DNA of 64,000 bases. It comes from an uncultured Clostridia bacterium (GTDB lineage: Bacteria > Bacillota > Clostridia > Christensenellales > UBA1242). The translations under genes and the position numbers were made by a program. Every line of letters starts with the position of its first letter. The stretch's first letter is position 1. Shown here one piece after another: positions 5,240-62,652 of this stretch. The notes under the pieces are model-generated. The model saw only the letters and a list, made by a program, of their open reading frames with translations, ran no database searches and was not told where the DNA came from. The DNA is taken from positions 137-64,136 of the forward strand of contig CALVZW010000001.1 in NCBI GenBank assembly GCA_944372675.1, in the 5' to 3' direction.

Positions 5240-5243
5240 AATT

Positions 5244-5275
5244 AAAAAGCAATACTTTTTGTATTGCTTTTTCTA
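5244..5275 (+). terminator. intrinsic terminator of lysS
   Basis: Stem AAAGCAATAC (5246-5255) pairs with GTATTGCTTT (5261-5270) around a TTTTT loop, followed by a T-rich tail. Confidence 0.7.
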
Positions 5276-5351
5276 TTAAGTAAAAATTTAATCATATAAG
5301 TTTGGTTTAAAATAAATATGTAAGTAAAACTAATAGTTTTATAAAAACAAA

Positions 5352-10474: not shown

Positions 10475-10532
10475 TTAAATCACAAATGAAAATGGTTTTT
10501 ACCTAAATAAGTATTATATTTTTTAACAATAA

Positions 10533-10580
10533 TAAAAAACGCTTTCAAGGGGTAATTTTTGAAAGTGTTTTTTATTTTTT
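10533..10580. terminator. bidirectional intrinsic terminator between convergent genes
   Basis: Stem ACGCTTTCAA (10539-10548) pairs with TTGAAAGTGT (10559-10568, one G-U). It is flanked by an A-run upstream and a T-run downstream. Confidence 0.6.
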
Positions 10581-10600
10581 ATATTTAATATTTTTATTAA

Positions 10601-12295
10601 TTATTTTTCTCTAAAAACTTTTAGTTGCAAAAACAGTGATTTATATAAATAATCTATAAAAACAACCAATGATGCAACGATTGGTATTATAATATAAGGC
10701 AAATAATCGATAAAATTACTAAGATTTAATCCGCATAAAAAGTTAACTGCAAAGGTCAATAAGACTATTACGGCAAAAATTATTAATCTTGGTAACCACT
10801 CTTTATTTATATTATAATAACCAATTAAACTAAATTCTTTTTTAACTGCAATAATTGCATAAACAATAGGGTAAATAATTGAACAACCTAAAATACCTAT
10901 TATTAAATAAGAAATTGATTGTAACTCAGTTAATGATTCTTTAAAAGCAAAATAGCATATAAACATTAATACAACCAATGTTGCGTATGATAAAATTGAT
11001 GTTAATAAATTAGTTTTATTTATGTAAACTTTATGTGATTTTAGTTTTGTGTTGTTTTTTCTATACCTTTGGACTTTTATACCATTTAGTTCACAATTAT
11101 CTATAAAATCTGTTAAAGTTGGTAAGTCATTTTCAATTTTATCTTCTTTAACATTGTCTTTGTAATTGATTTCGCTTTTTGTAATAATTGGTTCAATAAA
11201 TTGTTTTTTAGTAGATTGCGATGAATTGTAAAAATTATAATTATTAACAATATTGTTACTTCTTTTTAAAAATATGTTAGCTTTTAAATTATCATCAACT
11301 TTAACTTTATCTTTGATTAAATAAGAATCAACTTTGCTTTTTTTGACGGTTTCATTAGATTCGATACTTGGTTCGCCAAAAAGATTTTCATTGTATTGAT
11401 TACTGAGGTCTTGTTTTGAAAAGGGTAGTAAATCATTATTGTTATCAATTTTTAAAGTTGACTTATTGCTTACCATAGATTGATATTCATTCATGTACTT
11501 GCTTTTTTCATTTGGATTAAGCAAAATGCCTTGGTCAGTGTTTTCTAAGCCTGTTTTTATTACCTCATTGTTATCAGTTTTTAACTCATTTGAAGTGTTA
11601 TCTTTTTCAATCATTTCGCCAAATATGCTATCAAAGTCTATAGCATCTTCTTTTAAGTCATTATATGACAAAGTTGTTGGCTTATATAGTAGACTTGTTG
11701 AAGCGTCTTGTGGTATAATTTGTTTGTCGGATAATAATACGGCATCAGTTTTGTCATAAACTCTAAAATCATTTACTTCTTCATTTTCAGTTGAATTTTT
11801 ATTTTCAAATGATTTTTCATTTACGTTGTTTAAATTAGTATTTGCAGAGGATTGATTTAAATAATCGAGTATTGAATAATTTGAAATTGTTTCATCCTGT
11901 ATTTCTTCAGTTGGGGTAGGGGAAGAAGTATCAGTGCGTTTAGAATGTTCAATTGTGTTAAAGAAATCTGGTTGAATTGCTAAAGTTGATGAAACATTTT
12001 TACTTACATTTTCATATTTTTTAAATTCTTCAAAATTGTATGGATGTTCTTCAACATATTTTAAACCTTTTTCAGTTAATGCACTGTACCTTCGTTTGCC
12101 ACCAATTTCACTATTTTCCCAATAGGAAGTAATAAAACCTTCAGACTCTAATTTATGTAGACTACTATATAAACTTGGTAATTTAACATCTAATTGATTA
12201 AAAGTTAAATTTTTTATAGATTTAATAATTTCAAGCCCATACTTATTCCCATCTTTTAAAGTATTTAGTATGATTGAATTTATTTTTCCTCTCAT
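10601..12295 (-). CDS. PadR-family winged-helix regulator fused to a long linker and a C-terminal 4-TM membrane domain
   Basis: The N-terminal ~90 aa (NTLKDGNKYGLEII...LPSLYSSLHKLESEGFITSYWE...GGKRRYSALTEKG) match the PadR wHTH pattern. The middle is N/S/T/E-rich. The last ~150 aa contain four hydrophobic helices. Confidence 0.7.
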   Translation of the reverse strand: MRGKINSIILNTLKDGNKYGLEIIKSIKNLTFNQLDVKLPSLYSSLHKLESEGFITSYWENSEIGGKRRYSALTEKGLKYVEEHPYNFEEFKKYENVSKNVSSTLAIQPDFFNTIEHSKRTDTSSPTPTEEIQDETISNYSILDYLNQSSANTNLNNVNEKSFENKNSTENEEVNDFRVYDKTDAVLLSDKQIIPQDASTSLLYKPTTLSYNDLKEDAIDFDSIFGEMIEKDNTSNELKTDNNEVIKTGLENTDQGILLNPNEKSKYMNEYQSMVSNKSTLKIDNNNDLLPFSKQDLSNQYNENLFGEPSIESNETVKKSKVDSYLIKDKVKVDDNLKANIFLKRSNNIVNNYNFYNSSQSTKKQFIEPIITKSEINYKDNVKEDKIENDLPTLTDFIDNCELNGIKVQRYRKNNTKLKSHKVYINKTNLLTSILSYATLVVLMFICYFAFKESLTELQSISYLIIGILGCSIIYPIVYAIIAVKKEFSLIGYYNINKEWLPRLIIFAVIVLLTFAVNFLCGLNLSNFIDYLPYIIIPIVASLVVFIDYLYKSLFLQLKVFREK

Positions 12296-12378
12296 TTTTA
12301 AAACCTCAATTTATTAAATATATTCTACATTTTTTTATAGTATTTGTCAATTAAATACTATAATTTTATAAAAAATTT

Positions 12379-12436
12379 ATAATACACCATATTTAGTGTA
12401 TTATAAACTCATAATACACAATATAAGGGGTAATAT
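12379..12436. repeat. palindrome doublet, locus A (two 26-bp units in 32-bp phase)
   Basis: ATAATACAC-CATATTTA-GTGTATTAT at 12379-12404, linker AAACTC, then ATAATACAC-AATATAAG-GGGTAATAT at 12411-12436. The second unit contains the SD (AAGGGG) and abuts the ATG at 12437. Confidence 0.9.
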
Positions 12437-13117
12437 ATGATTGATTACATACAAAGAACTGCAAGAAAAACACTTTCAATAATAATTAATGAAAAAGGTG
12501 AAGTAACTGTAAAAGCACCTAAAAGAATGTCAGAAAGTGATATCTATAAATTTGTACAATCAAAAGAAAAATGGATTAACTCAAAAGTTAATTCAATTAA
12601 ACAGCAAAATGAAATTAATAATGATTTATTTAATTATAAATGTATTTTGTTTTGTGGCAAAAAATATAGAGTTATAAAAGATACAAAGGCAAAAGATATT
12701 CAATTGGAAGAGGGTATAATAACCATAAAAAAACTTTCTTCATTAAAAAGGGAAGTGCGAGTTTTAGAAAAATTTTTGAAAAACAAATGTTTAGAAATAG
12801 TAGGGCAAAGACTTAAATATTTTTCAAATATAATGCAGTTAGAGCCACAAAAAGTAGTTTTAATGAATTCAAAAAGAAAGTGGGGCACTTGTGATAGTGA
12901 CCAAGTAATATCTTTTAATTGGCGAATAATTATGTTAACACCTAATTTAATTGATTATGTAATTGTACACGAGTTATCGCATTTAATTGAAATGAACCAT
13001 TCTCCAGCATTTTGGGCAATAGTCAGTGCGGTATTACCAAATGTAAAACAATTGAGAAGCACTTTAAAACAATGTAATTTTATTTTACAACAATTTAGAG
13101 AAATTCCTATTGATTAA
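12437..13117 (+). CDS. YgjP-like zinc metallohydrolase (DUF45/M48-like)
   Basis: 226 aa with the C-terminal motif VIVHELSHLIEMNHSPAFW (HExxH) typical of the YgjP family. Confidence 0.75.
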   Translation: MIDYIQRTARKTLSIIINEKGEVTVKAPKRMSESDIYKFVQSKEKWINSKVNSIKQQNEINNDLFNYKCILFCGKKYRVIKDTKAKDIQLEEGIITIKKLSSLKREVRVLEKFLKNKCLEIVGQRLKYFSNIMQLEPQKVVLMNSKRKWGTCDSDQVISFNWRIIMLTPNLIDYVIVHELSHLIEMNHSPAFWAIVSAVLPNVKQLRSTLKQCNFILQQFREIPID

Positions 13118-15097: not shown

Positions 15098-15126
15098 TTG
15101 ACAAAAAGTTTTTTATATGGTATACT
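15098..15126 (+). promoter_or_regulatory. lexA promoter
   Basis: -35 TTGACA at 15098-15103, a 17-bp spacer, then -10 TATACT at 15121-15126. Confidence 0.65.
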
Positions 15127-15154
15127 CAAGAAAAATACAAAGGAGAATATAATT

Positions 15155-15787
15155 ATGGCAAAAAATAATCAAAAAATTGACTATATGCTAGATTATATCG
15201 CATCTTACTCAAAAGATAATGGATTTCCCCCAAGCATACGAGAAATTCAAAATAAATTTAATTTTAAGTCGACTTCTACGGTGTCATATTATCTTAAGAA
15301 ATTAGAAGAAAGAGGCGATGTTGTTAGCAAAGGTAGAAAAAATAGAACATTAACAATTTCGCCAAGATATTATGATGAGCATCCGGAATTATCAAAAAAA
15401 TTCTTAGATAAAGATTTTAATTTAATTCCCCTACTCGGTTGTATAACTGCTGGTCAACCAATTTTAGCTGAAGAAAATTATGATGAATCATTTTTTATTC
15501 CAACTAACTTGTTTAGAGGTGATAACTTATTTATGCTTACAGTAAGTGGTGAAAGTATGATTGAAGCAGGTATTTATGATGGGGATAAGATTATCGTTCG
15601 TAAACAAGAAACAGCCGAAAATGGTGAAATTATTGTTGCTTTAATTGAAAATTCTGCTACAGTTAAAACTTATTATAAGGAAGAAAATAGAATTCGTTTG
15701 CAACCCGAAAACTCAACAATGCAACCGATGTACTTTGATAATATTAGTATTTTAGGTAAAGTTATTGGTTTAATTAGAAAAATGTAA
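15155..15787 (+). CDS. lexA: LexA repressor
   Basis: Start at MAKNNQ, with SD AAGGAGA upstream. The ORF-track start at 15098 lies in the promoter. It has an N-terminal wHTH and a C-terminal S24 peptidase with the GESM serine and the VKTY lysine. Confidence 0.92.
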   Translation: MAKNNQKIDYMLDYIASYSKDNGFPPSIREIQNKFNFKSTSTVSYYLKKLEERGDVVSKGRKNRTLTISPRYYDEHPELSKKFLDKDFNLIPLLGCITAGQPILAEENYDESFFIPTNLFRGDNLFMLTVSGESMIEAGIYDGDKIIVRKQETAENGEIIVALIENSATVKTYYKEENRIRLQPENSTMQPMYFDNISILGKVIGLIRKM

Positions 15788-15841
15788 TACACAAATTGTT
15801 GTGTATTATAAAAGTAGAATACACAATATAAAGTGTATTCT
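15784..15841. repeat. palindrome doublet, locus B (overlaps the lexA stop; the second unit doubles as a terminator)
   Basis: GTAATACAC-AAATTGTT-GTGTATTAT at 15784-15809, linker AAAAGT, then AGAATACAC-AATATAAA-GTGTATTCT at 15816-15841. The stem extends to 12 bp (15813-15844) and is followed by T8. Confidence 0.9.
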
Positions 15842-15990: not shown

Positions 15991-16962
15991 TTATTTAACA
16001 AATTGTTTATATTTTTGTAATACAAATTGAATTATATTTTGTTCATCTTGTAAATTTTCATTATTCATAAATATAATATTTTTTGTGTATCTTTTATACC
16101 AAGTTATTTGTCTTTTAGCATAATTTCGAGAATGTTGTTTAACTTTTTCAATAGCATTGTTTAATGTATCATTGCCATTAAAATAATCAAAAAATTCTTT
16201 ATAGCCAATTGCATATGACACTTGTAGTTTTTTATTTAATTTGTTTTGCAAATCGAAAATATATTTTGCTTCTGTTAATAGTCCATTTTCTAACATTTCA
16301 TCAACTCGTGAATTAATATCATTATATAATTTTTCTCTATCCTTATTTAAAAAAATTATAAAATATTCATAAGGTGAATTTTCAAAATTATTTTTGTTTT
16401 GTCTTATGTTAGATAATTTTTCATTTGTGGAATGACAAATTTCTAATGTTCTAATAATTTTTTTGGTATCGTTAATGTTTAATTTTTTTGCCGTTTGTTC
16501 ATCTACTTTTAGCAACAAATTATATAATGCTTTTTTCCCCTGCTCTTCAAGAATTTTATTTAAACATTTGCGATATTCTTCGTCTTTTTGACATTGTGCA
16601 AAATCATAAGGGAATAAAAGGCTTTCAATATATAAACCGGTTCCACCTACTATTATTGGCAGTTTTTTATTTTGATATATTAAATTTATTTGTTTAACTG
16701 TATCATTTTTAAATTCTGCAGTACTATATTCTTCTTCAATATTTTTTATGTCAATATTGTAATGAGGATATTTTTTTAGCAATTTTTCATCAAGTTTTGC
16801 AGTTGCAATATTACATTGTCTATAAATTTGCATTGAATCGGCAGAAATTAAAGAACAATTTAAAATATCATAAAGTTTAAGTGCTACTTTTGTCTTACCT
16901 ACACCTGTTGGGCCTGCTAATATAAGCAAAGGTATTTTATTTATAGTACTCGTTTGAACCAT
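15991..16962 (-). CDS. miaA: tRNA dimethylallyltransferase
   Basis: 323 aa with P-loop GPTGVGKT and the miaB-mutS-mutL-miaA synteny. Confidence 0.9.
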   Translation of the reverse strand: MVQTSTINKIPLLILAGPTGVGKTKVALKLYDILNCSLISADSMQIYRQCNIATAKLDEKLLKKYPHYNIDIKNIEEEYSTAEFKNDTVKQINLIYQNKKLPIIVGGTGLYIESLLFPYDFAQCQKDEEYRKCLNKILEEQGKKALYNLLLKVDEQTAKKLNINDTKKIIRTLEICHSTNEKLSNIRQNKNNFENSPYEYFIIFLNKDREKLYNDINSRVDEMLENGLLTEAKYIFDLQNKLNKKLQVSYAIGYKEFFDYFNGNDTLNNAIEKVKQHSRNYAKRQITWYKRYTKNIIFMNNENLQDEQNIIQFVLQKYKQFVK

Positions 16963-25390: not shown

Positions 25391-25581
25391 TATAAAAAAT
25401 TAAATAATTAAAGTATTTACAAGTTTTAAAAATATATAAATAAATAACAGACAGATTGTAGAAAAAAATAATAAAATGGAAACAACATAGCATACAAAAC
25501 AATTATATATTTAAAATTTAAAATTGTTTTAAAAACCATAATCTTATGAGTTGTAAAATGTATTAACATTTACTACAAAAT

Positions 25582-25615
25582 AAAAAATCACGAAATATAT
25601 TCGTGACTTTTTTAA
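25582..25615. terminator. bidirectional intrinsic terminator (PBP gene / rpmA)
   Basis: A-run, stem TCACGAA (25588-25594) pairing with TTCGTGA (25600-25606), then a T-run. Confidence 0.7.
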
Positions 25616-26506: not shown

Positions 26507-26590
26507 TTAGTTTCCCTCCTATAGTATTAAGACTCGCTGAATAAGGCGACTTGCGTACTTAAAAAGCCCACTCCAAGCGGTACTGCAGTA
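26507..26590 (-). promoter_or_regulatory. L21 (rplU) leader, ribosomal-protein autoregulatory 5' UTR
   Basis: This is the only GC-enriched, structured non-coding segment in the window. It sits between a consensus promoter and rplU, the position of the Firmicutes L21 leader. Confidence 0.55.
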
Positions 26591-26619
26591 AGTATATCTA
26601 AATTAACTCAATTTGTCAA
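26591..26619 (-). promoter_or_regulatory. rplU operon promoter
   Basis: On the minus strand: TTGACA (26619-26614), a 17-bp spacer, then TATACT (26596-26591). Confidence 0.7.
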
Positions 26620-28017: not shown

Positions 28018-29118
28018 ATGAAAATTTGCGGAATAATATGCGAACTTAATCCGGCACATAACGGACATAAGTTTTTAATTGAAGAAGTAAAACGGAAAAC
28101 TAATTGTGATTTAGTCATAGCAATTATGAGTGGAAATTTTGTTCAGCGTGGCGAACCTGCTATATTTGACTACCAAACTCGTGCACAAATGGCTATAAAT
28201 GTTGGTTTTGATGCTGTTATTTATTTGCCAACGGTTTACACTTTAAATTCGGCTGAAAATTTTGCTGGGCAGACTTTGTTTGTAGCAAGTCAATTTAATT
28301 TAGATTATTTAGCATTTGGAGTAAACTCTAATGAAGAAATTTTATATAAAATTAATGATTTAAAACAAAATGTTGATTTTAATAATTTAATTAAAAACAA
28401 TTTATCAAAAGGCTTTTCATTTTCAAATTCGTTTAGTAAAGCAGTTTATGAAAAATTGCATACAAATATAACTGCTAATGATATTTTAGCACTAGAATAT
28501 TTGTCAGTTATTGATGATAAAAAATATAATTTTACACCAATTATTATCAATAGAAATAATGAAATATCAGCAACAAAAATACGAAAGTTAATTTTGACAA
28601 AGCAATTTGACAAACTTTCTAATATGATTGATGAAAATAATTTAAATTTAATAAAAAAATCTAAAGTCAATAACTATAACAAATTTAATATGGTTATTTA
28701 TTCCAACATAATATCAAGTACGAAAGAAACCTTAGTAAATATAAAAGATATGCGTGAAGGAATTGAAAACAAAATATACAACGCAAATTCCAATACACTA
28801 TATGGTTTAAATAAGCAAGTAAAATCAAAAAGATACAATCAAAAATATTTAAATAGATTGTACTTAAATATATTATTTGGCATAACAAAAGATTCTAATG
28901 TTATGCTTCCCTATTTAAAAATTGTTGCAGTAAAAAATAAAACTGTTTTAAATAATTTAAAGTGTAAATTGCCTTTAATTACAACTTTAAAAAATAAAAA
29001 TATTTTAAATGAAAATAGCATTTATGATTACGATATCTTAAGTTCAAAAATTTATAATTCCGTTAATAAAATAAATTCCAATGCTTTCCCATATCAAAAA
29101 ATTATAATACACAATTAA
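28018..29118 (+). CDS. tmcAL: tRNA(Met) cytidine acetate ligase (YlbM/UPF0348 nucleotidyltransferase)
   Basis: The N-terminus GIICELNPAHNGHKFLI...MSGNFVQRGEPA matches the YlbM/TmcAL pattern. Confidence 0.8.
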   Translation: MKICGIICELNPAHNGHKFLIEEVKRKTNCDLVIAIMSGNFVQRGEPAIFDYQTRAQMAINVGFDAVIYLPTVYTLNSAENFAGQTLFVASQFNLDYLAFGVNSNEEILYKINDLKQNVDFNNLIKNNLSKGFSFSNSFSKAVYEKLHTNITANDILALEYLSVIDDKKYNFTPIIINRNNEISATKIRKLILTKQFDKLSNMIDENNLNLIKKSKVNNYNKFNMVIYSNIISSTKETLVNIKDMREGIENKIYNANSNTLYGLNKQVKSKRYNQKYLNRLYLNILFGITKDSNVMLPYLKIVAVKNKTVLNNLKCKLPLITTLKNKNILNENSIYDYDILSSKIYNSVNKINSNAFPYQKIIIHN

Positions 29119-29161
29119 TTGCGTATTATAAAAATATAATACACTACATTTAGTGTATTAT
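29104..29161. repeat. palindrome doublet, locus C (overlaps the last codons and stop of tmcAL)
   Basis: ATAATACAC-AATTAATT-GCGTATTAT at 29104-29129, linker AAAAAT, then ATAATACAC-TACATTTA-GTGTATTAT at 29136-29161, followed by a T-run. Confidence 0.9.
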
Positions 29162-35204: not shown

Positions 35205-35262
35205 ATAATACACAACATATTGCGTATTATATTTTTATAATACTCAATATCTAATATTCGAA
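35205..35262. repeat. palindrome doublet, locus D (second unit decayed)
   Basis: ATAATACAC-AACATATT-GCGTATTAT at 35205-35230, linker ATTTTT, then a left arm ATAATACTC at 35237-35245 with no matching right arm. It overlaps the stop of the 86-aa gene. Confidence 0.8.
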
Positions 35263-39611: not shown

Positions 39612-39669
39612 ATAATACACTAAATATGGTGTATTATTATTTTATAATACACCATATTTGCTTATTATA
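39612..39669. repeat. palindrome doublet, locus E
   Basis: ATAATACAC-TAAATATG-GTGTATTAT at 39612-39637, linker TATTTT, then ATAATACAC-CATATTTG-CTTATTATA at 39644-39669. The right arm of the second unit is decayed, and its centre is almost the reverse complement of the first unit's centre. Confidence 0.88.
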
Positions 39670-53133: not shown

Positions 53134-55224
53134 TTAAATTTTTTGTATTAATCTTAAATCAATTCTTCCTCTGTTGTCAACTTTAATAACTTCAACTTTA
53201 ACCTTATCGCCCACAACAACAACATCTTCAGTTTTTTCAATATGTTTGTCGGAAAGTTTTGAAATATGAATTAAGCCTTCTTTAGTTGGAGATAATTTTA
53301 CAAATGCACCAAAATCACTAGTTCTAACAACTTGTCCATTTAAAATCATACCAACTTCAACTTCCATAACAATGCCTTCAATAATTTCTTTTGCTCGTTG
53401 AATCATTTTTGCATCAAAGCCGGCAATAGTAACAAAACCATCATCTTCAATGTCAATTTTTACATTTGTTTCTTCAATTATTTTATTGATACTCTTACCA
53501 CCAGAGCCAATAACATCTTTAATTTTATCAGGGTCAATATTTAAAGTTGCAATTTTTGGTGCGTATGGTGATAATTCAGTTCTTGGCATACTAATTGTTT
53601 CAAGCATTTTATTCATAATAAATAATCTACCGATTCTTGCCTTTTCCAAAGCAGTTCTTAAGATATTTTCATCAATGCCTTTAATTTTAATATCCATTTG
53701 AATTGCTGTAATACCCTTTTCAGTCCCTGCAACTTTAAAATCCATATCGCCATAAAAATCTTCTTCGCCTTGAATGTCAGTCAAAACAAAAGTTTTATCA
53801 TCGGCTTTGATTAACCCCATAGCAATACCTGCAACAGGTGAAGAAATTGGTACACCAGCATCCATCAAAGCAAGTGTAGAACCGCAAACACTTGCCTGCG
53901 AAGTTGAGCCATTTGAACTCAATACTTCTGAAACTGTTCTTATTGAATAAGGGAATTCTTCTTCAGTAGGTAAAACTGGTTCCAATGCCCTTTCAGCAAG
54001 TGCCCCATGTCCAATTTCACGACGACCAGGTGTACGCAACATTTTTGCTTCACCTGTGCTGTAAGGTGGCATATTGTATTGATGCATATATCGTTTTTCT
54101 TCTTCTTGTTGACTAAGCCCATCAATTTTTTGCATTTCACTTAACATACCCAAAGTACAAGTTGTTAAGACTTGTGTTTGTCCACGAGTAAAGACTCCTG
54201 AACCGTGAACTCTTGGAAGCAACCCAACTTGACACCAAATCGGGCGAATTTCATCTAATGAACGACCATCTAAACGAATTCCTTTTTCAACTATTTTATT
54301 TCTTACTTTTTCTTTTGTCATTGCATAAATAGTTGAATTTACAATGGCTTCAATATTTTCCACTTCAGGATATTTTGATGAAAATTCATTTAAACATTCT
54401 TGCTTTAAATCAGCATCTCTTTGCTGTCTTTCTTCACGAATGATTGTGTCAAGTACATAGTTAAGTTTTTCATTAGCGTAATCTTTTACTTCTGCCCTAA
54501 TTTGTGTAGTAAGTTCATCTTCAGTTGTAACGCATTTTTTATCTTTACTAAATTCTTTAATAATTTGTAATTGAAACTCAACTTGTTTTTTAATTTCTTC
54601 GTGTGCTACCATAATTGCTTTAAGCATTGTTTCTTCATCAACGAATTTAGCCCCTGCTTCAACCATTAAAATAGCGTCGTGTGTTCCGCTTACAGTTAAA
54701 TTAAGTAAACTTTTTTCTCTTTGTTCTAAATTAGGATTTAAAATAAATTCTCCATCAACAAGAGCAACATTTACAGCACCAGTTGGACCTTCAAACGGAG
54801 CAGACGAAATGGACAAGGCAATACTTGACCCAAGCATACACAATGCTTCAGGTGCTACATCTGGGTCAACTGAAAGCGGTGTCGCAACAATTGAAATGTC
54901 ATTGTAAAAGTTTTTAGGGAACAATGGTCTTAAAGGACGGTCAATTAATCTTGAGTTTAAAATTGCCTTATCAGAAGGCTTACCCTCGCGTCTTTTGTAA
55001 CTACCAGGTATTTTACCCACTGCATAAAGTTTTTCTTCAAAATCAACACTTAATGGAAGAAAATCAACTCCATCACGTGCTTTATCAGCAACTGTTACAT
55101 TAACCATTACTACCGTATCTTGACATCTTACTAAACAAGAACCATCGGCTTGCATTGCGTATCTGCCTAGTTCTACTTTTACTGGTTTTCCCCCATAAGT
55201 TGTTTCAAATATTTTATTTTCCAT
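53134..55224 (-). CDS. pnp: polyribonucleotide nucleotidyltransferase (PNPase)
   Basis: 696 aa with two RNase PH domains, KH and S1 domains, and the rpsO-pnp synteny. Confidence 0.96.
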   Translation of the reverse strand: MENKIFETTYGGKPVKVELGRYAMQADGSCLVRCQDTVVMVNVTVADKARDGVDFLPLSVDFEEKLYAVGKIPGSYKRREGKPSDKAILNSRLIDRPLRPLFPKNFYNDISIVATPLSVDPDVAPEALCMLGSSIALSISSAPFEGPTGAVNVALVDGEFILNPNLEQREKSLLNLTVSGTHDAILMVEAGAKFVDEETMLKAIMVAHEEIKKQVEFQLQIIKEFSKDKKCVTTEDELTTQIRAEVKDYANEKLNYVLDTIIREERQQRDADLKQECLNEFSSKYPEVENIEAIVNSTIYAMTKEKVRNKIVEKGIRLDGRSLDEIRPIWCQVGLLPRVHGSGVFTRGQTQVLTTCTLGMLSEMQKIDGLSQQEEEKRYMHQYNMPPYSTGEAKMLRTPGRREIGHGALAERALEPVLPTEEEFPYSIRTVSEVLSSNGSTSQASVCGSTLALMDAGVPISSPVAGIAMGLIKADDKTFVLTDIQGEEDFYGDMDFKVAGTEKGITAIQMDIKIKGIDENILRTALEKARIGRLFIMNKMLETISMPRTELSPYAPKIATLNIDPDKIKDVIGSGGKSINKIIEETNVKIDIEDDGFVTIAGFDAKMIQRAKEIIEGIVMEVEVGMILNGQVVRTSDFGAFVKLSPTKEGLIHISKLSDKHIEKTEDVVVVGDKVKVEVIKVDNRGRIDLRLIQKI

Positions 55225-55240
55225 TTATTTACTCCTTTGC

Positions 55241-55298
55241 ATAATACACTATATTTAGTGTATTTTATTATTATAATACCAAATATATGGTGTAATAT
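55241..55298. repeat. palindrome doublet, locus F (in the pnp 5' leader, abutting the SD)
   Basis: ATAATACAC-TATATTTA-GTGTATTTT at 55241-55266, linker ATTATT, then ATAATACCA-AATATATG-GTGTAATAT at 55273-55298. The pnp SD occupies 55232-55238. Confidence 0.88.
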
Positions 55299-55321
55299 AT
55301 TTATTTATATATTATTATTTA

Positions 55322-55352
55322 CAAAAAAGCCCAAAAATATTTTTGGGCTTTG
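55322..55352 (-). terminator. intrinsic terminator/attenuator between rpsO and pnp
   Basis: AGCCCAAAA (55328-55336) pairs with TTTTGGGCT (55341-55349). The A-run at 55323-55327 gives a U-run on the minus strand. Confidence 0.75.
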
Positions 55353-55357
55353 AACAT

Positions 55358-55609
55358 TTATCTAATGCCGAGTTCTGTAGCAATACTTCTGTATTGTTCA
55401 ATATCGGTTTTCTTAAGATAATTTAACAAGCCTTTTCTTTGCCCTACTAATTTAAGTAGACCACGGCGAGTGTGATTATCTTTAGGATGAACTTTTAAAT
55501 GTTCGTTTAAGTGATTAATTCTTTCTGTAAGCAAAGCGATTTGAACACTTGTTGAACCAGTGTCTTTTTCGTTCTTACCGAATTTAGCAATAATCTCTTT
55601 CTTATCCAT
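55358..55609 (-). CDS. rpsO: 30S ribosomal protein S15
   Basis: 83 aa with [33 protein letters not shown]. Confidence 0.94.
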
Positions 55610-55720
55610 ACTGATTTTCTCCTTTACTAATTTACTCCAAAAGCAAGGTAATGCGTCGGAGATTCGACAAAACTTTGCTAAAGGTATTTAAATGATAGCA
55701 CAAAGTAAATTATTTGTCAA
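55610..55720 (-). promoter_or_regulatory. rpsO promoter and structured leader (possible S15 autoregulatory element)
   Basis: On the minus strand: TTGACA (55720-55715), a 17-bp spacer, then TATCAT (55697-55692). The ~75-nt leader contains a GTCGAATCTCCGAC hairpin nested in AGCAA/TTGCT pairing. Confidence 0.45.
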
Positions 55721-62473: not shown

Positions 62474-62539
62474 AAATTGTCAAGGAAATTTTTTAAAAAA
62501 AAGTTTTAAATTTATGTAATATTAATTCATATAAATTTA

Positions 62540-62580
62540 AAAAACAAACTTGAATAAATTAAGTTTGTTTTTTTGTTTTT
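62540..62580 (+). terminator. intrinsic terminator of murC
   Basis: Stem AAACAAACTT (62542-62551) pairs with AAGTTTGTTT (62561-62570), followed by a T-run. Confidence 0.7.
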
Positions 62581-62652
62581 ATGTATTTTATCTCACGACG
62601 AAAAGACCATACTATGTGGCCTTTCTTATCTTATAGCATCCATTTTCATTTT

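Follow-up and report, generated by a model that had tools for sequence, protein, structure and literature searches.

The spacer between rpsO and pnp in contig CALVZW010000001.1, an uncultured Clostridia sequence of which a 64,000-nucleotide stretch (the window) was analysed, contains two similar palindromic units directly in front of the ribosome-binding site of pnp, the gene encoding polynucleotide phosphorylase (PNPase). This locus raises the question of whether such a doublet works as RNA or as a binding site on the DNA, and why the same repeat is found at other, unrelated loci. Based on the fit of the sequence, its conservation in seven species and its placement, we lean slightly toward the view that the pnp doublet is a tandem operator of the type bound by NrdR, situated after the rpsO terminator and before the ribosome-binding site of pnp and belonging to a clade-specific family of old, immobile 58-bp elements. 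A preliminary description had mentioned an NrdR-like site as a speculation only; this idea passed all available sequence tests and is now better supported than the structured leader put forward in the same description, with binding itself deduced from sequence.

On the minus strand, which is the mRNA sense for both genes, the rpsO stop codon is followed by a GC-containing terminator, a distal unit, a proximal unit, the Shine-Dalgarno (SD) sequence and the ATG of pnp. The preliminary description had proposed this order, and all of its features were found at the minus-strand coordinates it gave (Table 1). The terminator hairpin AAAGCCCAAAAATATTTTTGGGCTTT occupies positions 55351-55326, is followed by a T-run to 55321 and folds with -13.7 kcal/mol (z -4.0). 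It was not called by a simple terminator scanner, probably because the loop/stem rule of the program does not suit a perfect palindrome. Twenty-two AT-rich bases separate the terminator from the distal unit. The two units start 32 bp apart, leaving six bases between them, and each harbors one 16-bp box of the NrdR type.

In published NrdR sites, a pair of 16-bp boxes, each a partial palindrome, is separated by a linker of 15-16 bp; both boxes are required for binding, and the length but not the sequence of the linker matters (PMC12051234, PMC13584703). Six box positions are highly conserved, namely C4, A6, A8, T9, T11 and G13 (PMC12051234, PMC13584703). The proximal pnp box ACACTAAATATAGTGT matches all six and scores 13.4 bits (rank 3), while the distal box ACACCATATATTTGGT matches five and scores 11.6 bits (rank 8 of 63,985 16-mers). 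Its single deviation is a G displaced by one base, resulting in a C-G distance of 9 bp, which is the same variant that was experimentally tolerated in one box of a pair (PMC13584703). Among the 12 boxes of the window, six agree with the conserved positions at 6/6, five at 5/6 and one at 4/6. The information profile of the 12 units is high at positions 2, 4, 6, 8, 9, 11, 13 and 15, whereas positions 5, 7, 10 and 12 carry almost no information. Positions 8 and 9 would sit in the loop of a hairpin, where conservation is not expected for a pure RNA stem-loop.

As an independent measure, we scanned for pairs of boxes 31-32 bp apart with a matrix built only from ten validated NrdR boxes of E. coli and S. 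coelicolor. All six doublets outscore every other tandem site in the 64 kb, with the pnp doublet in first place at 25.0 bits; in 100 shuffled sequences the 95th percentile of the maxima was 15.4 bits and the largest value 22.8. Tandem hits occur about once per 13 kb in the window, compared to four in 1.34 Mb of distant relatives (∼25 times rarer), and neither pnp nor an nrd gene is the location of any of these four. One distant relative (L034, 21125-21172) has a plausible tandem NrdR-type site of 22.9 bits. It follows an open reading frame (ORF) that we take, by eye from its N-terminus, to encode an inosine-uridine nucleoside hydrolase, precedes the gene for a small membrane protein, and could be another candidate NrdR target outside the RNR (ribonucleotide reductase) genes in this order.

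The doublet is located directly upstream of pnp in all five closest species and in none of 75 pnp loci from farther relatives. It is likewise retained, with both boxes intact, in a seventh species (57% acs identity), so that the set comprises seven species with protein identities of 57-83% and GC contents of 26-39%. Across this set, the arms of the proximal unit and box positions A8 and T9 are invariant, whereas the 8-nt centre otherwise varies, at tolerated positions. Similarly, the 6-nt spacer between the pnp units is fixed in length and variable in sequence, and no alignment is possible from the rpsO terminator to the distal unit. One relative (L006) kept the doublet although its upstream context in the aligned window is unlike that of the other species. 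A generic scan for the NrdR core in the 75 distant pnp loci revealed no tandem boxes at pnp, and its few hits fell inside coding regions or at unrelated sites; hence, the association with pnp is particular to this clade. This conservation pattern points to recognition of the doublet as double-stranded DNA.

According to the preliminary description, the same repeat occurs at five other loci, and doublets with exactly 32-bp spacing were indeed found to start at each of the five remaining positions listed in Table 1. Matches to the 16-mer with no more than three mismatches numbered 12, compared to 2.4 expected, and no shuffle out of 100 reached this value. With a matrix of the family itself, ten units score 26-35 bits (best of 20 shuffles: 15.5), and the sixth locus reaches 31 bits though it was left out of the matrix building. 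The units share the arm pattern ATAATACAC-N8-GTGTATTAT, and across loci and species the 32-bp spacing is exact in 25 of 26 doublets. All six doublets are intergenic within the ∼73 kb that were searched in this genome (the window plus 9 kb beyond its ends, where neither nrd genes nor further doublets were found), with unit ends overlapping stop codons at loci B, C and F.

Table 1. Features of the rpsO-pnp region and doublets of the same family in the window
Feature	Position	Strand	Description
Doublet A	12379..12436	+	Between the divergent PadR-fusion gene and YgjP-like (PF01863) gene; 5'-located
Doublet B	15784..15841	+	In the spacer of the convergent genes lexA and miaA; overlap of unit 1 with the lexA stop
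Doublet C	29104..29161	+	In the spacer of two convergent genes, for a HIGH-nucleotidyltransferase and a hypothetical protein; overlap of unit 1 with a stop codon
Doublet F	35205..35262	+	In the spacer of the convergent ADP-forming acetyl-CoA synthetase gene and 86-aa ORF; decay of unit 2
Doublet D	39612..39669	+	In the spacer of murG and a convergent Sel1-repeat gene; outer arms decaying
pnp (polynucleotide phosphorylase)	53134..55224	-	NF008805, E 2.7e-290; ATG at 55224
pnp Shine-Dalgarno AAAGGAG	55232..55238	-	Begins 3 nt past the proximal unit; GGAG invariant in the alignment
Proximal unit (doublet E)	55241..55266	-	26 nt; NrdR-type box 2 at 55261-55246
Linker between boxes	55262..55277	-	16 bp; length invariant, sequence variable across species
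Distal unit (doublet E)	55273..55298	-	26 nt; NrdR-type box 1 at 55293-55278 (mRNA sense)
rpsO intrinsic terminator	55321..55351	-	11-bp GC-containing stem and U-tract; perfect 15-nt palindrome arms
rpsO (ribosomal protein S15)	55358..55609	-	TIGR00952, E 1.1e-36; stop TAA 55360-55358; gene upstream of the pnp leader
Probable rpsO promoter	55692..55720	-	TTGACA, 17 nt, TATCAT preceded by TG; 11/12 consensus match only

The six loci were also compared with those of a sister genome. A contiguous 61-kb stretch of contig CALVJT010000021.1 (our loci L006, L103 and L109) holds the same six loci as the window, without a single gain or loss. Gene order differs between the two by at least one rearrangement, with the block from rnhA to the penicillin-binding protein gene placed directly after rny in the sister genome, and despite this rearrangement all six doublets keep their flanking genes. 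Since orthologous positions are kept and no copies were gained or lost, the doublets are therefore old, fixed features and have not been mobile recently. No other member is retained as persistently as the pnp copy; other copies were found at the corresponding loci of varying subsets of relatives (A in L103, L105 and L106; B in L103/104, L105 and L108; C in L109 and L110; F in L008, L109, L110, L111 and L113; D in three further species). An extra doublet, G, is present in L111 (20286-20343) between the mreB stop codon and minD. It scores 29.9 bits, has two 6/6 boxes and fully complementary units, occupies a position between tandem genes as at rpsO-pnp, and is absent from the other species examined.

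The preliminary description had overlooked the location of four of the six doublets between convergent genes, at which they resemble bidirectional terminators. Two classes can thus be distinguished: 5' copies upstream of genes (A at the ygjP-like gene and E at pnp) and 3' copies between convergent genes (B, C, D and F). Across species, both boxes of the 5' doublets are competent, with a mean tandem score of 25.8 bits and 11.3 bits for the weaker box, whereas 3' doublets average 19.0 and 5.9 bits, usually with only one box kept. The difference (p 0.004, one-sided Mann-Whitney test) is to be read as indicative because orthologs are not independent; statistics that pool orthologous sites, here and below, overstate independence. 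In doublet A, unit 2 overlaps the SD sequence and abuts the ATG at 12437, and its tandem score of 24.5 bits is second only to that of pnp; in L103, a promoter (10/12) upstream of doublet A ends 6 nt before it. The 3' copies carry A-tracts upstream and T-tracts downstream and form strong or long hairpins. Unit 2 of doublet B, with its A4/T8 flanks, is a strong terminator-like hairpin of -18.2 kcal/mol, and that of doublet C (A5/T8) reaches -15.8 kcal/mol, in both cases exceeding the rpsO terminator. At locus D the two units pair into one long hairpin of -22.5 kcal/mol.

Doublets fill four of the nine convergent junctions in the window. At least four of the five doublet-free junctions (5240-5351, 10475-10600, 25391-25615 and 62474-62652) show an unrelated succession of A-tract, hairpin and T-tract, which seems to be the usual form of a bidirectional terminator in this genome. 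The terminator stem between lysS and rnhA (GCAATAC/GTATTGC) has AATAC/GTATT in common with the repeat arms. In L106/107, an unrelated ordinary terminator stands in the place of doublet B, and in L108 unit 2 of doublet B has a 7-nt centre, which still allows a hairpin; experimentally, a 7-nt centre abolishes NrdR binding (PMC13584703). Locus D of L113, the most divergent species (16306-16382), shows the route by which a 3' copy decays: only the centre halves of the units, CTAAATATG and CATATTTAG, are left, separated by unrelated sequence. Part of our best explanation is that the 3' copies are kept mainly as bidirectional terminator hairpins. In our reading, one ancestral element may have met two fates, becoming an operator at 5' sites and a terminator hairpin at 3' sites.

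We also analysed the pnp leader as RNA, because the preliminary description had compared it to the structured, RNase III-processed pnp leader of enterobacteria. In the window, a fold was obtained for the proximal unit (-8.4 kcal/mol, z -4.2) but not for the distal one (z +0.4), and the complete leader does not stand out (z -1.4). For four of five relatives (L006-L009) the best fold is a single hairpin of 19-24 bp between the two units (z -2.1 to -3.8), which is broken in the window species. Counting pairs across six species, the local stem of the proximal unit is 96% paired and never varies, hence it is uninformative, and that of the distal unit is 59% paired. The long hairpin is 86% paired with three double-sided changes, a result equalled by 46-112 of 500 shuffles, so that covariation gave no significant support for either fold in these species. 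An Rfam search with the leader revealed no match near the gathering or E-value threshold, which also removes a known RNA family from the candidates. Neither pnp unit is followed by a U-tract, unlike B2 and C2 with their T8 tails. The comparison with the enterobacterial leader is therefore weak for the window species itself, though four relatives can form the long hairpin. An RNA role of the pnp doublet is possible on the basis of these predicted folds, especially in the relatives; it does not explain the conserved loop positions and the fixed length of the spacer.

The most substantial competing explanation, to which we assign a limited but real chance, is that the doublets act as RNA throughout: as hairpins like those of the REP, BIME and REPIN elements, with terminators at 3' ends and a stem-loop near the SD sequence of pnp that controls processing, stability or translation, the likeness to NrdR boxes being ancestral or coincidental. 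The strong folds of B2 and C2, the occupation of four of nine convergent junctions when at least four of the other five have ordinary bidirectional terminators, the exchange of doublet B for such a terminator and the 7-nt centre that suits a hairpin but not NrdR all agree with this idea, as does the long leader hairpin of the relatives. Moreover, complementarity between the units averages 5.73 of 8 positions compared to 5.10 for a null of shuffled partners (p 4e-4), and compensatory changes are seen at D and F. For D, as well as for the L111 copies of F and G, the reverse complementarity of the two units extends to variable positions, again with compensatory changes. Such inverted complementarity is clear at D in four species (7-8 of 8 centre positions, including a compensatory change), in the F and G doublets of L111 and in the pnp doublets of L007 and L008, while doublets A, B and C are near the null and the other pnp and F copies, including the pnp doublet of the window, are at or slightly above it. 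Against a purely RNA-based function stand the broken hairpin and the poor folding of the distal unit and the leader in the window, the lack of U-tracts, significant covariation and Rfam matches at pnp, and the orthology of all six loci in two species. No RAYT gene or larger element body was found among the annotated ORFs of the window and the genes called in the relatives' loci, and the conserved loop positions 8 and 9, the constant 6-nt spacer and the better-kept boxes at 5' sites would be left without a reason. Because similarity between loci is limited to 58 bp plus A/T tracts, a miniature inverted-repeat transposable element or larger mobile element was excluded, and a CRISPR-like array was dismissed since the units never exceed two. 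We also weighed dif/Xer sites, parS and uptake sequences, and dropped them because they disagree with the doublets in motif, in copy number and in tandem geometry.

The doublets could instead be operators of another symmetric DNA-binding protein, an option we consider very unlikely. The obvious candidate is the product of the gene adjoining doublet A in all four species examined (10601-12295, minus strand), a 564-aa fusion protein that starts with a PadR domain and continues into a long, unassigned C-terminal part; this protein would have to serve as a clade-specific global regulator. PadR operators are inverted 4-bp half-sites 8-10 bp apart and thus have the same geometry, but their canonical half-sites are ATGT/ACAT (PMC3506622), compared to ACAC/GTGT here. 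In favour of such a role, the locus of the more distant LexA relative examined (L112) shows neither the doublets nor the PadR/YgjP gene pair. The tandem arrangement, the fixed 16-bp linker and the conserved central A/T are, however, hallmarks of NrdR sites for which we found no report concerning PadR, and all six sites are found by the matrix that was derived solely from validated NrdR boxes. Furthermore, the PadR-fusion gene has a strong, near-consensus promoter of its own beside doublet A (12322-12350; TTGACA, 17 nt, TAGAAT; 11/12) that does not overlap the doublet, which lies upstream of the -35 element. This element is part of the conserved sequence TTTGTCAA, which reads TTGTCA on the opposite strand, so that it may also serve the YgjP-like gene. 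We give similarly little credence to the idea that the pnp doublet has no regulatory role and is the tolerated relic of a palindromic element that once spread. Decay is indeed visible elsewhere, at D2, F2 and locus D of L113, and the distal pnp unit of the window carries two substitutions; yet a mere relic would hardly keep its proximal arms, A8 and T9 invariant in seven species amid unalignable intergenic DNA, nor be the most persistent copy of its family.

Several observations weigh against the assignment of the pnp doublet to NrdR. For the four window copies (of six) between convergent genes there is no target of repression, which a simple regulon reading does not account for, and the complementarity of the units at variable positions in some doublets is not predicted by NrdR binding. 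The conserved ATAAT/ATTAT flanks of the units fall outside the published 16-bp box. NrdR is regarded as an RNR-specific repressor, which is the basis on which it has been considered as an antimicrobial target. Neither nrd genes nor nrdR were found in the window or in the relatives' loci examined, including by a tblastn search with NrdR, and a homolog search with B. subtilis NrdR recovered only Bacillus-type proteins. Consequently, the matrix had no nrd operon as a positive control, including none from the same genome. As for a promoter at pnp, no sigma-70-like promoter was called between the rpsO terminator and pnp in L008, implying that both units would be transcribed there, which speaks for the RNA explanation. 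A promoter-like match within the pnp doublet of the window reaches only 9/12, and a TATAAT hexamer (55275-55270) is located inside the linker between the boxes. At the flank of the proximal unit, the conserved TA[T/G/A]AAT has no acceptable -35 partner, with the scanner again finding nothing in L008. The probable rpsO promoter is the sole strong promoter-like site upstream of pnp.

If the pnp doublet is an NrdR operator, as we prefer to think, its function could be pictured as follows. From the sequence we infer that the organism has NrdR, which would bind the doublet and repress pnp. When dATP is high relative to ATP, a tetramer loaded with dATP/ATP would bind both boxes, bend the DNA sharply and lower pnp transcription. 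It could do so by occluding a weak promoter within the doublet; because the only strong promoter-like site lies upstream of rpsO, however, a roadblock to RNA polymerase that reads through the rpsO terminator is more likely here. PNPase makes nucleoside diphosphates, the substrates of class I and class II RNR enzymes, and their supply from RNA breakdown would thereby be coupled to the demand for DNA precursors. The YgjP family, represented next to doublet A, includes a UTP pyrophosphatase, and NrdR proteins are able to bind heterologous sites in vitro.

A more far-reaching proposal, which we regard as rather doubtful, is that an NrdR operator has turned into a dispersed 58-bp element (about one per 12 kb) that acts as a dATP-sensing regulator or roadblock beyond the RNR genes, at pnp, the YgjP-like nucleotide hydrolase gene and mreB-minD, and that also provides nearly half of the bidirectional terminators between convergent genes, with read-through possibly depending on the nucleotide pool. 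What appears to be new is a canonical NrdR-type operator sequence at a non-RNR gene, in a conserved dispersed family with terminator-like 3' members. If NrdR does act at pnp, RNA turnover and the control of deoxynucleotide supply would be joined through one nucleotide sensor, and the NrdR regulon would be able to expand. Apart from this, one palindromic element would be operator-like at 5' ends and a terminator between convergent genes, at the same loci across species, so that a small AT-rich genome would offer an unusual, traceable case of a regulatory sequence reused for another job.

The window has a GC content of 27% and encodes, besides rpsO-pnp, miaB-mutS-mutL-miaA, lexA, a Xer-like recombinase, murG, rny, recA, ftsK and a ylxY-like gene; no transposase, nrd gene or nrdR is among its annotated genes. 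An L21 leader (26520-26594, minus strand) matches Rfam barely at the gathering score (36.4 vs 36 bits) and precedes the genes for rplU, a Prp-like peptidase and rpmA, consistent with an origin from Bacillota. The lexA ORF (15098-15787; 229 aa from a TTG start) is probably overlong, as an identical database protein and its orthologs have 210 aa. PNPase genes identical to that of the window are carried by gut metagenome contigs. The nearest genomes at species level are metagenome-assembled genomes of uncultured Clostridia with PNPase identities of 77-83%, and among the next tier (at most 65%) are 'Candidatus Onthoplasma', CAG-917 and Christensenellales bins. A scan of metagenomes for the doublet pattern revealed four matches, none with an nrd context: a family-like doublet downstream of tpiA on the short contig L088, and three that represent an unrelated repeat with a GC-rich centre. 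The latter (L085-L087; Joint Genome Institute contigs Ga0105051, Ga0105052 and Ga0335396) is sequence of ∼48% GC in which the arm pattern surrounds AAAATACACAACGAGTTGTGTATTTTTCTAGAAAAATACACAAC, identical on all three contigs. All ten matches in a scan of viral contigs were unrelated.

How does the pnp doublet compare to known systems? In E. coli, the rpsO-pnp leader contains a hairpin that is processed by RNase III and used for the autoregulation of PNPase. The order of rpsO terminator, palindromic leader and pnp is the same here, and the ∼20 bp doublet hairpin of the four relatives would be long enough for RNase III. In contrast to the E. coli leader, there is no sequence or Rfam similarity, the hairpin is disrupted in the window species and the element is common to unrelated loci. 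The REP, BIME and REPIN elements of Proteobacteria are short extragenic palindromic doublets, often located at 3' ends or between convergent genes, that can give rise to long hairpins, were recruited as terminators or stabilisers and were proposed to be dispersed protein-binding sites (PMC3337134, PMC3333891). The family described here resembles them in being repeated extragenic palindromes arranged in doublets. It differs in its spacer, which is fixed at 6 nt compared to REPIN spacers of 71 and 110 bp in P. fluorescens SBW25 (PMC3337134, PMC3333891), in its orthologous, non-mobile copies, in that most doublets are not inverted at variable positions, and in its Clostridia host.

The closest likeness is to the tandem NrdR operators of E. 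coli (nrdAB, nrdDG and nrdHIEF), S. coelicolor (nrdAB and nrdRJ) and L. monocytogenes (nrdDG), with which the pnp doublet shares the two boxes, the 16-bp linker and the six conserved positions. Like validated operators, it has an AT-rich centre, lies near a start codon and scores as high as validated boxes; at L. monocytogenes nrdDG, the ATG follows 13 bp past box 2. It differs from them in that the downstream gene is pnp instead of an RNR gene or nrdR, and in that the element is dispersed at about one copy per 12 kb, 3' intergenic sites included. The only validated NrdR site at a non-RNR gene that we found in the literature is that of P. aeruginosa topA, a single box with a positive effect on expression (PMC4409342). 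Both topA and pnp thus represent non-RNR genes with an NrdR-type sequence, but the pnp doublet combines two boxes with canonical spacing and is conserved across species.

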